Virus record (IMG/VR): IMGVR_UViG_2728369554_000003
Length of the DNA stretch: 9,777 nucleotides
Strand: one strand, 5' to 3'
Source of the DNA: a virus
Lineage: Duplodnaviria; Heunggongvirae; Uroviricota; Caudoviricetes
Below the pieces are notes generated by a model that worked only from the letters and a program-made list of their open reading frames with translations, had not been told where the DNA came from and searched no databases. This document shows positions 1 through 3,518 of the stretch, in pieces. How positions within the stretch are numbered: the stretch's first letter is position 1; the number at the start of each line of letters is the position of its first letter. Both the position numbers and the translations under genes were made by a program.

Positions 1-505
1 GCGCCAGTCGCCACTGCCGGAGCCTTCATAAGCAATATCAATGGCCACGGATTCGGTCGGGTTAAACTGCACGCCAGCTCCCCACGCCAGAGACGTGTTG
101 CTGTGGCGATCGTCATCACTTCCGGTCAGCACATCGTGCGTTTTCCCCTTGTTGTCAGTTACGCGGGGATAATCCCCGGAGAACGTCGAAACACGGCTGT
201 AAGCCACACCTGCCATCGCATAAGCACTGAACCATTCATTCACGCGTACAGATGGCCCCGCCATCATGCTGAACCAGCGGTTACGCACTGAATCTTCATG
301 CCAGCGGGTATCGCTGTAATGCGTTCTTTGCTCATCTTTGGCATTGGCATAACTGAATGACGTCACCAGCCCCAGCGTGTCCGTAAATTCATAACGGTAT
401 TTCACGTTAATGCCCTTCAGGTCATCACTGCCTGGCATATCAGTATGGGTCTGAAGATACCCGGCGCTTAGTGTGGACTGATGCTCTGCTGCGCTCGCTG
501 GCGTA
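1..505 (-). CDS. lom: Lom outer-membrane protein (Ail/Lom/OmpX family), copy A; 3' end runs off the window and 5' end (signal peptide) is lost in the N gap
   Basis: My own minus-strand translation of 1..505 is open throughout and reads [168 protein letters not shown], which matches lambda Lom as I recall it. The supplied ORF 440..1225 is in a different frame here and is a read-through artifact. Confidence 0.85.
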
Positions 506-760
506 NNNNNNNNNNNNNNNNNNNNNNNNNNNNNNNNNNNNNNNNNNNNNNNNNNNNNNNNNNNNNNNNNNNNNNNNNNNNNNNNNNNNNNNNNNNNNNN
601 NNNNNNNNNNNNNNNNNNNNNNNNNNNNNNNNNNNNNNNNNNNNNNNNNNNNNNNNNNNNNNNNNNNNNNNNNNNNNNNNNNNNNNNNNNNNNNNNNNNN
701 NNNNNNNNNNNNNNNNNNNNNNNNNNNNNNNNNNNNNNNNNNNNNNNNNNNNNNNNNNNN
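506..760. other. Assembly gap (255 N)
   Basis: Uninterrupted run of n characters; non-round length suggests an estimated scaffold gap. Confidence 0.99.
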
Positions 761-920
761 CTTAGCGCCACTGAATGCCACCGCCGGAATAACAATTTGC
801 CGGTCAAACGGCTGATCGTCATAAACCCTGACGGTAATGGTCCCTGATGGCCACCGCTCCGGTGCACGGGAGTCCCGGGGGAAAGCTTTGCCCACTGTTT
901 TAACGAGATCGCCTTCAATC
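761..920 (-). CDS. J: Orphan fragment of the J C-terminal region (allelic copy of 1555..1715), misplaced between two lom pieces
   Basis: Near-identical at nucleotide level to 1555..1715 with a few synonymous differences; minus-strand translation gives ...PAVAFSGAK / [44 protein letters not shown]. Bounded by N gaps on both sides. Confidence 0.6.
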
Positions 921-930
921 NNNNNNNNNN
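921..930. other. Assembly gap (10 N)
   Basis: Run of 10 n; flanking sequences are not colinear (J fragment on one side, lom on the other). Confidence 0.99.
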
Positions 931-1225
931 CGCTGAACCAGCGGTTACGAACGGAATCTTCATGCCTGCGGGTATCGCTGTAACGGGTAAGCTGGCGATT
1001 CTTGTCTCCTGCATAGCTGAATGACGTCACCAGCCCCAGCGTGTCCGTAAATTCATAACGGTATTTCACGTTAATGCCCTTCAGGTCATCGCTGCCTGGC
1101 ATATCAGTATGGGTCTGAAGATACCCGGCGCTTAGTGTGGACTGATGCTCTGCTGCGCTCGCTGGCGTACCAGCGGCAACCAGCCAGACTACTGCGGACA
1201 GAATAACAGCACATAATTTACGCAT
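931..1225 (-). CDS. lom: Lom outer-membrane protein, copy B, N-terminal 98 codons with start codon and signal peptide; 3' end truncated at the N gap
   Basis: ATG at 1223..1225 (minus) preceded by GAGAGG Shine-Dalgarno; translation [98 protein letters not shown], with a typical signal peptide and AxA cleavage site. 931..1165 overlaps copy A (280..505) but has a divergent patch ([10 protein letters not shown] vs ANAKDEQRTH). Confidence 0.8.
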
Positions 1226-1246
1226 AATTACCTCTCGCTTTTCTGC

Positions 1247-1274
1247 AATAAAAAAGGCACCATTTCTGGTGCCC
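1247..1274 (-). terminator. Candidate intrinsic terminator between J and lom
   Basis: Minus-strand sequence GGCACC-AGAAAT-GGTGCC (1273..1256) forms a 6 bp GC-rich hairpin followed directly by TTTTTTAT (1255..1248). It lies 20-45 nt after the J stop and about 23 nt before the lom start. Confidence 0.5.
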
Positions 1275-1292
1275 GTATCTGGGTTATAAAAT

Positions 1293-2109
1293 TCAGCTAA
1301 TCGTGATGCCTGCAGTGGCTTTCTTCATCACAACAACCAGCAAATCGCTGATACTTGCTGTGGGATACCAACCATTTACCCACCATGCTGATACAGAAAA
1401 CTCCAGTGTCATTACGCCACTGCCTGCAGGCATATCAATAACACCCGTGTAAATCAGAGTATTATCCAGAGCCGTTCGGTTATAAATTTCAGCCCCGTTT
1501 TTCTTCACTATCAGGCGGCATGACGAATAAGTATCGCTATTCTCCCGTTCATGTCTGGCACCGCTAAAAGCCACCGCTGGAATAACAATTTGCCGGTCAA
1601 ACGGCTGATCGTCATAAACCCTGACGGTAATGGTCCCTGATGGCCACCGCTCCGGTGCTCGGGAGTCACGGGGGAAAGCTTTGCCCACTGTTTTAACGAG
1701 ATCGCCTTCAATCTGGTTCGCGGACAGTTTTCCCAGAACCCGGCAGTTCTCGTTAATCGTGACGTTGTTGAGCGTCCCGGAGTTCGCATTCACGTTACCG
1801 CTGATATCGGCATTTTTCGCCGTCAGCCGCCCGTCCGGTGTCAGGGAAAATGCCGGAGGATTACCGCCGCTGGTAATGGTGGGAGCCGTCAGATATTTCA
1901 GGAACACTTCATTCATAAATATCTGATCGCCCTGACCAACAAACATCGGCTTTGTATTGCCATTCGCAGGATTAATCATCGCAATCCTGTCCGCCGCCAG
2001 CAGCACCTGACTCTGCATACCGTCAGGGGTATTCTCAATACCGGCACCAATACCCGCGATATAAAGGCGTCCGTCCTGCATCTGCTGCAGCTTCACAGCC
2101 CACATGCTG
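1293..2109 (-). CDS. J: Host-specificity/central tail fiber protein J, C-terminal ~271 codons (allele 1) including the distal receptor-recognition region; 5' end at N gap
   Basis: Minus-strand frame is open from the gap to a TGA at 1293..1295 and reads [121 protein letters not shown]...[11 protein letters not shown]. This resembles the lambda J C-terminus; the J stop-to-lom start spacing of 67 bp is lambda-like. Confidence 0.8.
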
Positions 2110-2119
2110 NNNNNNNNNN
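2110..2119. other. Assembly gap (10 N)
   Basis: Run of 10 n. Confidence 0.99.
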
Positions 2120-2234
2120 GCCATTTACCAGCCATGCTGACACCGAAAACTCCAGTGTCATGTGACCGTGACCGGCAGGCATATCAATAACGCCACTGTA
2201 AATCAGCGTATTATCCAGCGCGGTACGGTTATAA
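2120..2234 (-). CDS. J: Orphan 115 bp fragment of the J distal C-terminus (allele 2), homologous to 1373..1486 at roughly 85% identity
   Basis: Minus-strand translation [38 protein letters not shown], compared with ...[38 protein letters not shown] in the 1293..2109 copy. Flanked by N gaps. Confidence 0.6.
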
Positions 2235-2244
2235 NNNNNNNNNN
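2235..2244. other. Assembly gap (10 N)
   Basis: Run of 10 n; flanks are not colinear (about 200 codons of J would be missing). Confidence 0.99.
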
Positions 2245-2848
2245 GTTCATGAATATCTGATTGCCCTGCGCCACAAACATCGGCGTTTCATTCCCGTTTG
2301 CCGGGTCAATAAATGCGATACGGTTAGCGGCAACCAGGAACTGGCTCAGTTTGCCTTCCTCCGTGTCCTCCATGCTGAGGCCAAGCCCCGCGACATAATG
2401 TTTGCCGTCTTTGGTCTGCTCAATTTTGACAGCCCACATGGCATTCCACTTATCACTGGCGTCCTTCCACTCTTTCGAAAACTCCTCCAGTCTGCTGGCG
2501 TTATCCTCCGTCAGCTCGACTTTTTCCAGCAGCTCCTTGCCGAGATGGGATTCGGTTATCTTGCCTTTGAAAAAATCCAGGTAACCTTCCGCATCATCGC
2601 TCGCCCGACCGACAGCCTCCACGAATGTCGATTTGCCGACGGTGTTCACACTGCGAACGTAAAAATAATAATCATGGCCCGGTTTGATATTGATACTGGC
2701 GGCTATCCAGTACAGCGCCGTGCCAAGATAACGCGCGCTGGTTTCAACCTGCCTGATATCCGCAATCCGATTTTCCGAGAACCAGAACTCAAACTGTACC
2801 GTCGGATCATAAACCGCAAGATGCGGCGTGGCGGTTATCTGAAAATAG
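2245..2848 (-). CDS. J: J internal fragment (allele 2): Ig/FN3-like repeat plus start of C-terminal region
   Basis: Minus-strand translation [201 protein letters not shown]. Its first ~90 codons duplicate the end of 2859..3508 with a few substitutions, and its last ~65 codons are a divergent homolog of the start of 1293..2109. Confidence 0.7.
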
Positions 2849-2858
2849 NNNNNNNNNN
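2849..2858. other. Assembly gap (10 N)
   Basis: Run of 10 n separating two overlapping, near-identical J segments. Confidence 0.99.
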
Positions 2859-3508
2859 CCAGATAGCCGGATGCATCATCACTCGGCTGGCCAACAGCCT
2901 CCACAAATGCCGATTTGCCAACGGTGTTCACACTGCGAATGTAAAAATAATAATCATGGCCCGGTTTGATATTGATACTGGCGGCTATCCAGTACAGCGC
3001 CGTGCCAAGATAGCGTGCTGTGGTTTCAACCTGCCTGATATCCGCAATCCGCTTTTCCGAGAACCAGAACTCAAACTGTACCGTCGGATCATAAACGGCA
3101 AGATGGGGCGTGGCGGTTATCTGAAAATAGCCCGGTGTCAGCTCAATCTGCGACGGCGCTGCCGGTGCGGCAATCCGGAACGATACCGATGCCGGATCGC
3201 CCTGCTGCCCCCACGCATTTACCGCCCGGACTGTCAGCCTGTAGTTCCCCAGCGCCAGTTGCCTGAAGCGGTATGTGGTTTCCGTCGTCCGGGCCATGCT
3301 GACCAGCCGCTCACTGCCGTCGTCCGCTGCCACGGTAAGGCGAAGCAGGAAGCTCACGCCCTTCACCACCTTCGGCGTGTCCCATCGCGCCAGCACCTGA
3401 TATTCCCCGCTGTCTGTGGTGACTTCGGCGGTCAGGTGCTGCACCGCTGGCGGCGTGACACCATTCACCGTGCCGCTCTGGTCGCCGTCAAAGTGCGCCC
3501 CGTTATCC
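2859..3508 (-). CDS. J: J internal fragment (central Ig/FN3-like region)
   Basis: My translation is open across the whole piece: [136 protein letters not shown]...DDASGYL. The GTG at 3466..3468 reported as an ORF start is an internal valine. Confidence 0.8.
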
Positions 3509-3518
3509 NNNNNNNNNN
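3509..3518. other. Assembly gap (10 N)
   Basis: Run of 10 n; J sequence on both sides looks nearly colinear, so the missing stretch is probably short. Confidence 0.99.

Follow-up and report, generated by a model that had tools for sequence, protein, structure and literature searches.

Interleaved fragments of two lambda-like prophage J-lom loci as the probable content of a viral scaffold

The 9,777-nucleotide stretch of viral DNA analysed here (IMG/VR record IMGVR_UViG_2728369554_000003), referred to throughout as the window, carries on its minus strand part of a tail tip module of the phage lambda type (H-M-L-K-I-J-lom-stf, in which J is the tip attachment or host specificity protein), with which its gene order and RefSeq product names agree. 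Seven runs of N, five of them exactly 10 N long, divide the window into eight pieces (p1-p8; Table 1), six of which make up positions 1-3518, where lom and J appear to be disordered: taken at face value, this region holds a second lom, a duplicated fibronectin type III (FN3)-like module and a J gene with several frame breaks. A preliminary description had attributed this patchwork to a collapsed repeat of two or three lambdoid prophages with near-identical tail modules, concatenated by a scaffolder. Comparison of the sequence with closed genomes makes it very probable that positions 1-3518 are an assembly or scaffolding artefact that mixes the J-lom loci of two lambda-like prophages. The apparent second lom is an artefact, as are the domain duplication and the frame breaks; the region is no real feature of any genome and holds no new biology.

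Overlapping pieces at the J-lom locus

All-against-all BLAST of the pieces, followed by base-by-base comparison, recovered each of the five overlaps between non-identical homologous pieces that had been listed in the preliminary description, at coordinates differing by 1-13 bases and with its 'starts' and 'ends' of pieces correct when read in gene direction (minus strand). The overlap of 2120-2234 with a stretch placed at 1373-1486 was likewise present, at an identity of 82% (over 1371-1485) rather than roughly 85%. All five overlaps are ungapped, at 67-96% identity (E 1e-15 to 1e-112), and their mismatches fall mostly at third codon positions (14/21, 9/10, 36/66 and 15/22), which fits two functional alleles and not decaying duplicate fragments.

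Stacked on one another, the 3213 non-N bases of the six pieces in 1-3518 cover a locus of ~2.2-2.3 kb, and in the best-matching closed genomes (5,426 complete Escherichia coli genomes were searched) all six fall on one locus of 2228 bp. The pieces had been described as out of order for a single J, and on the intact locus p2 indeed belongs between p4 and p5; in the window it is a J fragment beyond lom, outside the J gene. The excess length of the J region, put at about 4.0 kb against an expected 3.4 kb, was also borne out, with the span 1293-5306 measuring 4014 bp, compared with 3480 bp or 3396 bp in the two reference loci introduced below.

Assignment of the pieces to two prophage loci

Positions 3519-9777 are 99.9% identical to sequence in two closed chromosomes of E. 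coli, AP017610 from a pig in Japan and CP042250 from bovine mastitis in China, and in both the match is a prophage integrated next to dusA, with tape measure, M, L, K (a C40 peptidase), I, J (3480 bp), lom and tail fibre following one another on one strand. On the AP017610 locus (L001), which we call copy A, p3, p6, p7 and p8 are collinear, without indels, at 99.6-99.9% identity, and through this reference the H-M-L-K-I-J-lom synteny and the domain architecture of J are found for copy A, agreeing with those of the lambda type (Pfam FNIII-A_GpJ, Phage-tail_3, Ig_J, Ig_J_second, Phage_Tail_Tip and Ig_GpJ_C, with Ail/Lom for lom). The other pieces are foreign to this locus, p1, p2 and p4 matching it at 95.4%, 96.8% and 82.5% and p5 in two blocks at 89.8% and 68%; they align to it ungapped, save for one single-base gap in p5. 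All four lie instead in the single J-lom locus of another prophage, found for example beside ompT in CP070066 (L003; lom 10479-11078, J 11146-14541, 3396 bp), which we call copy B. Their real order there is p1, p4, p2, p5, so p2 is misplaced in the scaffold.

By copy, the pieces of the window therefore read B, B (misplaced), A, B, B, A, A, A. Every switch between copies falls on an N run, and no copy-to-copy junction is sequenced through. With the pieces matching two intact loci at 98.75-100% and the two sets interleaving, the proposal that a scaffolder had strung together different lambdoid prophage loci is upheld.

The assignment is equally clear at sites diagnostic for the two references. 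Copy A pieces carry the A allele at 1367/1375 such sites (p3 130/135, p6 38/38, p7 375/378, p8 824/824), and copy B pieces the B allele at 189/192 (p1 22/22, p4 21/21, p2 8/10, p5 138/139). The exceptions are themselves ordered: p3 departs from the A reference at five sites (1259, 1270, 1659, 1668 and 1743), all of them to B alleles, with further B alleles within copy A sequence at 3861, 4212 and 4218, while p2 departs from the B reference at 866 and 875, both of them to A alleles and both exact homologues of 1659 and 1668. This reciprocal swap is a phase switch, the two contigs having traded arms of one small bubble.

Once sorted by copy, the pieces give intact genes, and none is left over. 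With 217 reference bases between p3 and p6 and 8 between p6 and p7, the copy A path (1-266, p3, p6, p7) encodes a 1159-amino-acid J with no internal stop and no amino-acid difference from WP_096488192.1, as well as an open lom; in the window as written, its J is short of these 217 + 8 bp and its lom of the last 39 nt. Copy B, assembled from p1, 1170-1370, p4, 68 reference bases, p2, 1714-1910 and p5, differs from CP070066 at 5/1850 bases and keeps the J frame open, with one difference in the C-terminal 406 amino acids of J. The two segments of p3 used in this path are 100% identical to copy B and stand for both copies. The length of the J span follows exactly, as 4014 = 3480 - 217 - 8 + 115 (p4) + 604 (p5) + 40 (four 10-N runs). 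Two intact J-lom loci in closed genomes of other strains thus account for every piece, and removal of one set restores an intact J, as expected if the second lom, the duplicated module and the J frame breaks are not real. 'Collapsed repeat' holds for the exactly shared stretches 1-266, 1170-1370 and 1714-1910; elsewhere both copies are present and interleaved. Once the artefact is removed, no biological difference from the lambda-type tail tip module is left. Where the reconstructed copy A J departs from the J of AP017610, the changes are all synonymous, copy B alleles included.

Each apparent oddity can be traced to its sources. The 'second lom' consists of 505 nt of the 3' part from the shared and copy B path (p1) and 295 nt of the 5' part from copy A (931-1225), which overlap by 239 nt; neither is complete. 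The 'FN3-like' module is duplicated only in appearance, and its identity is different: the overlap of p5 and p6 covers J residues ~725-815, a single second Ig-like domain (Pfam PF24489, residues 716-818), shown once from a copy B fragment and once from copy A. The frame breaks arise where N runs are read through, giving nonsense fusions such as the N-terminus of lom joined to a J fragment in the open reading frame (ORF) 440-1225. Mechanical ORF calls at 440-1225, 1293-2135, 2203-3468 and 3465-5306 (minus strand) are chimeric, with J pieces fused out of frame via XXXX.

The boundaries of the pieces carry a signature of their own. p2, p3, p4 and p5 start precisely at a position where the homologous copy has another base (761, 931, 2120 and 2245), for which local mismatch rates give a chance of ~0.06 x 0.09 x 0.18 x 0.33, or ~3e-4; this is the boundary pattern of de Bruijn-graph nodes whose k-1 prefix was left unwritten. 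The 255-N run between p1 and p2, which on copy B are 384 bp apart with p4 in between, is a genuine distance estimate.

Table 1. Pieces, N runs, features and overlaps of the window. L001 is the copy A locus of AP017610 and L003 the copy B locus of CP070066; aa, amino acids; SNP, single-nucleotide polymorphism.
Feature	Window position	Strand	Copy	Counterpart	Identity	Remark
Piece p1	1-505		B	L003 10518-11022	99.8%	
lom, 3' part	1-266	(-)	A and B			Same in both reference prophages, one private SNP at 167; stands once for both copies
lom, middle	267-505	(-)	B			Forms p1 together with 1-266
N run	506-760					255 N
Piece p2, J fragment	761-920	(-)	B	L003 11407-11566	98.75%	~aa 993-1045 of 1131, start of receptor-binding domain; misplaced left of lom
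N run	921-930					10 N
Piece p3	931-2109		A	L001 9947-11125	99.6%	
lom, 5' part	931-1225	(-)	A			Start codon 1225; opens p3
Terminator-like hairpin, then T run	1255-1274	(-)				Between J stop codon (1293) and lom start codon (1225)
J, 3' end	1293-2109	(-)	A			aa 889-1159 of 1159, tail-tip fibre domain and C-terminal receptor-binding domain
N run	2110-2119					10 N
Piece p4, J fragment	2120-2234	(-)	B	L003 11224-11338	100%	~aa 1069-1106 of 1131, receptor-binding domain
N run	2235-2244					10 N
Piece p5, J centre	2245-2848	(-)	B	L003 11764-12367	99.7%	~aa 726-926 of 1131, second Ig-like domain to tail-tip fibre domain
N run	2849-2858					10 N
Piece p6, J	2859-3508	(-)	A	L001 11343-11992	99.7%	aa ~600-816, both Ig-like domains
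N run	3509-3518					10 N; replaces 8 real bases of copy A J
Piece p7	3519-7639		A	L001 12001-16121	99.9%	
J, 5' part	3519-5306	(-)	A			aa 1-596; start codon 5306
Tail assembly protein I	5367-5939	(-)	A			Continuous with J; opens tail-gene block 5367-7639
C40 peptidase K	5936-6679	(-)	A			
Minor tail protein L	6685-7383	(-)	A			
Tail protein M gene	7393 onward	(-)	A			Enters 123-N gap
N run	7640-7762					123 N; outside the J-lom finding
Piece p8	7763-9777		A	L001 16282-18296	99.85%	
Tape-measure gene, partial	7763-9777	(-)	A			Extends past window end
Overlap p1/p3	267-505			931-1169	217/239, 91%	Divergent patch 320-352; E 7e-95
Overlap p2/p3	761-920			1554-1713	150/160; 95.5% over 765-920	E 7e-70
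Overlap p4/p3	2120-2234			1371-1485	94/115, 82%	E 8e-29
Overlap p5/p3	2245-2443			1911-2109	133/199, 67-68%	E 8e-16
Overlap p5/p6	2577-2848			2859-3130	250/272; 93.8% over 2591-2848	E 1e-112

Probable course of the assembly and alternative readings

The tail modules of the two references are less alike than 'near-identical' suggests, at 93.5% across stf-lom-J 3' and 89% across J 5'-I-K-L-M, and most of the tape-measure gene has no homology between them (the part at 7763-9777 has a copy B counterpart only for its first ~60 bases). What they do have is exact common runs (74, 167, 100, 80, 74, 167, 72, 83 and 126 bp, among others) that alternate with divergent patches of 30-85% identity, chiefly in the receptor-binding domain and in the region between the second Ig-like and tip-fibre domains. 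The longest relevant run, of 1323 bp (L001 8624-9946, L003 9461-10783), lies directly left of the first A/B difference, reaches from the 3' end of lom into the 5' end of the side tail-fibre gene, contains positions 1-266 of the window and is flanked by sequence of 93-98% identity. Exact common runs of 74-1323 bp confuse short-read assembly, and since ordinary short-insert pairs do not bridge a 1323-bp repeat, both loci hang from the same node. Identity over 1323 bp between prophages at different sites in different strains looks like a tract of recent recombination, and the alternation of shared runs and patches is that of lambdoid J gene mosaicism, of which NZ_CP104503.1 provides a natural recombinant: at 3517780-3525064 an A-like tail module (97.3% to 3519-9777) is continuous with a J middle of p5-like, copy B type (97.4%), so the two J types recombine in nature. 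The difference is that here the mosaic is the cause of an artefact and not the finding itself.

From these relations we infer the following course of events. The sequenced DNA would have contained two J-lom loci, one of the copy A type known from dusA in AP017610 and CP042250 and one of the copy B type known from beside ompT in CP070066. A short-read graph assembler would have kept one long, mostly copy A path (931-2109, 2859-3508 and 3519 onward), written exactly shared stretches once and turned the bubble arms of copy B into orphan contigs of 115-604 bp (761-920, 2120-2234 and 2245-2848, with 267-505 joined to the shared flank). A paired-end scaffolder would then have set both sets at the same estimated position, serially, with a minimum placeholder of 10 N wherever the estimated gap was about zero or negative. 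In Velvet output, any gap below 10 bp is written as 10 N, and at NCBI a run of N counts as a gap from a length of 10 upwards. Serial placement of the fragments of both copies is what looks like duplications and frameshifts. Reference-guided ordering was considered as the source of the piece order and rejected in favour of paired-end scaffolding, as neither mapped start nor mapped end coordinates reproduce the order of the scaffold.

The homogeneity of lambdoid prophages is known to fragment short-read assemblies of E. coli (PMC7175801). The present case resembles such misassemblies of multi-prophage genomes in that the breaks fall within homologous phage modules, here at the edges of shared sequence and at N-placeholder junctions. 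The usual outcome is separate contigs or collapse to a single copy, whereas here fragments of both copies stand serially in one scaffold, one of them out of order.

Several points weigh against this account. It relies on sequence and on closed genomes of other strains, and in the collection searched no closed genome carries the two copies together at >=99% each. Some SNPs (167, 3097, 3106, 4638, 4647, 8504, 8525 and a few others) match neither reference and could reflect strain variation or a third copy. In a two-copy model, three missing stretches have no explanation: 217 bp of copy A that should lie between p3 and p6 (L001 11126-11342), a further 68 bp from copy B (L003 11339-11406) and, at the 123-N gap, 160 bp. 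Finally, the distances from the last mismatch to the end of a piece (24, 45 and 78 bases) are inconsistent with a single k-mer size, so that the assembler cannot be named from them.

Some of these points would be met if three or more prophage copies had contributed, the third accounting for the unexplained breaks. Copy A is broken at L001 11125/11343 and 16121/16282 with no shared copy B sequence there, paired SNPs (3097/3106, 4638/4647 and 8504/8525) fit neither reference, and the closest closed genomes have 4-5 lambdoid tail places. Yet all pieces within 1-3518 go to A or B with 98.75-100% identity, and once the reciprocal swap is allowed for, none needs a third source. The allele pair 3097G/3106G is a circulating natural J variant and not an assembly error: the 35-mer that carries it (from 2859-3508) occurs at 30 IMG/VR loci and 28 metagenome loci, and on 0 contigs of species-representative genomes, and is uninterrupted where it occurs, so the pair can be ordinary strain variation. 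None of these loci has the N pattern of the window or fits its pieces from end to end, and a search for a protein identical to the translation of the ORF across the 3509-3518 gap gave no hit. Of the 'two or three' prophages first proposed, two are enough; a third is unneeded, and on balance we regard its contribution as unlikely.

The same artefact could also have arisen if each J-lom version came from its own E. coli strain or phage, the source being a mixed culture, a contaminated library or a metagenome. Neither of the closest copy A genomes, AP017610 and CP042250, has copy B at >=96.9% identity, and the 35-base allele is found in 28 metagenome contigs, such sequences being common in gut metagenomes. 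Against this, the chromosomal integration sites of the two types differ (dusA and the ompT side), the median number of J-lom places in a genome with any match is 2-3, and similar types co-reside in strain E10 (CP104533), which carries copy B (99.7%) ~0.5 Mb from an A-like tail module (97.2%); on these grounds co-residence of both prophages in one genome is more likely than two strains in the sample. The combination of 10-N placeholders and kilobase-scale unique contigs at 99.9% to an isolate is, moreover, typical of isolate drafts. A mixed source thus appears distinctly unlikely.

A further reading accepts the exchanged alleles as biology, with the swap between 866/875 and 1659/1668 and the copy B alleles in the copy A contig reflecting real and recent gene conversion between co-resident loci, or with the serial arrangement itself being genuine. 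If gene conversion were true, it would mean ongoing exchange of receptor-binding domains between prophages in one chromosome. The apparent exchanges in 931-2109 and 761-920 are more simply explained as phase switches of the assembler, and we consider this reading highly improbable.

That the window shows a genuinely rearranged J-lom locus, with real partial duplications in one prophage and N runs standing for a few unsequenced bases, is barely credible. In its favour are only the piece order of the scaffold itself and the existence of natural mosaic J genes such as that of CP104503; against it stand the N runs at every copy-to-copy junction, where nothing is sequenced and reading across yields nonsense fusions, the J fragment beyond lom, the four starts on mismatches, the reciprocally swapped alleles, the stacking of all pieces on a single 2228-bp locus in the best-matching of the 5,426 complete genomes searched, and the conservation of the duplicated pieces at non-synonymous sites, as in functional alleles.

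Programmed diversification of the J receptor-binding domain, by a diversity-generating retroelement with template and variable repeats or by invertible cassettes, has a negligible chance of being correct: 2120-2234 does resemble such a repeat pair slightly, as a 115-bp copy, at 82%, of part of the C-terminal receptor-binding domain of J, but it is 100% identical to the in-place J of the other prophage, its mismatches show no adenine bias (first copy G9 A5 C5 T2, second A8 C5 T5 G3) and lie at third codon positions in 14/21 cases, the ORFs of the window are all assigned (lom and the tail genes J, I, K, L, M and H), leaving neither a reverse transcriptase nor an invertase, and every copy is in direct orientation, with inverted repeats that are weak (<=22 nt, none above 79% over 22 nt), against shufflon-like cassettes.

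Use of the scaffold and remaining features

Run on this scaffold, gene callers would annotate features that do not exist: a J that is truncated or frameshifted, a fusion of lom and J (ORF 440-1225), a pair of lom fragments and a repeat of the Ig-like domain. For prophage typing, for host-range prediction from the J receptor-binding domain and for pseudogene counts, the region should be split into its two loci, masked or discarded. The diagnosis itself can be made without reads, by assigning N-delimited pieces to loci in closed genomes and checking for interleaving, boundaries at variant sites and length sums.

The 123-N gap sits at the junction of the tape-measure gene and the tail protein M gene, and the stretch behind it is 160 bp long in the 99.9%-identical closed genome (L001 16122-16281). 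Sequence shared between A and B was rejected as its origin, since similarity to reference copy B is confined to 60 bases on its right; the gap may stem from a third prophage, from low coverage or from another cause.

Lastly, two of the sites at which p3 departs from the A reference, 1259 (G in A, A in B) and 1270 (C in A, T in B), form one stem pair of the terminator-like hairpin between J and lom, which reads GGCGCC/GGCGCC in copy A and GGCACC/GGTGCC in copy B, the window having the copy B alleles. Such a compensatory change in the stem suggests that the hairpin is under selection.

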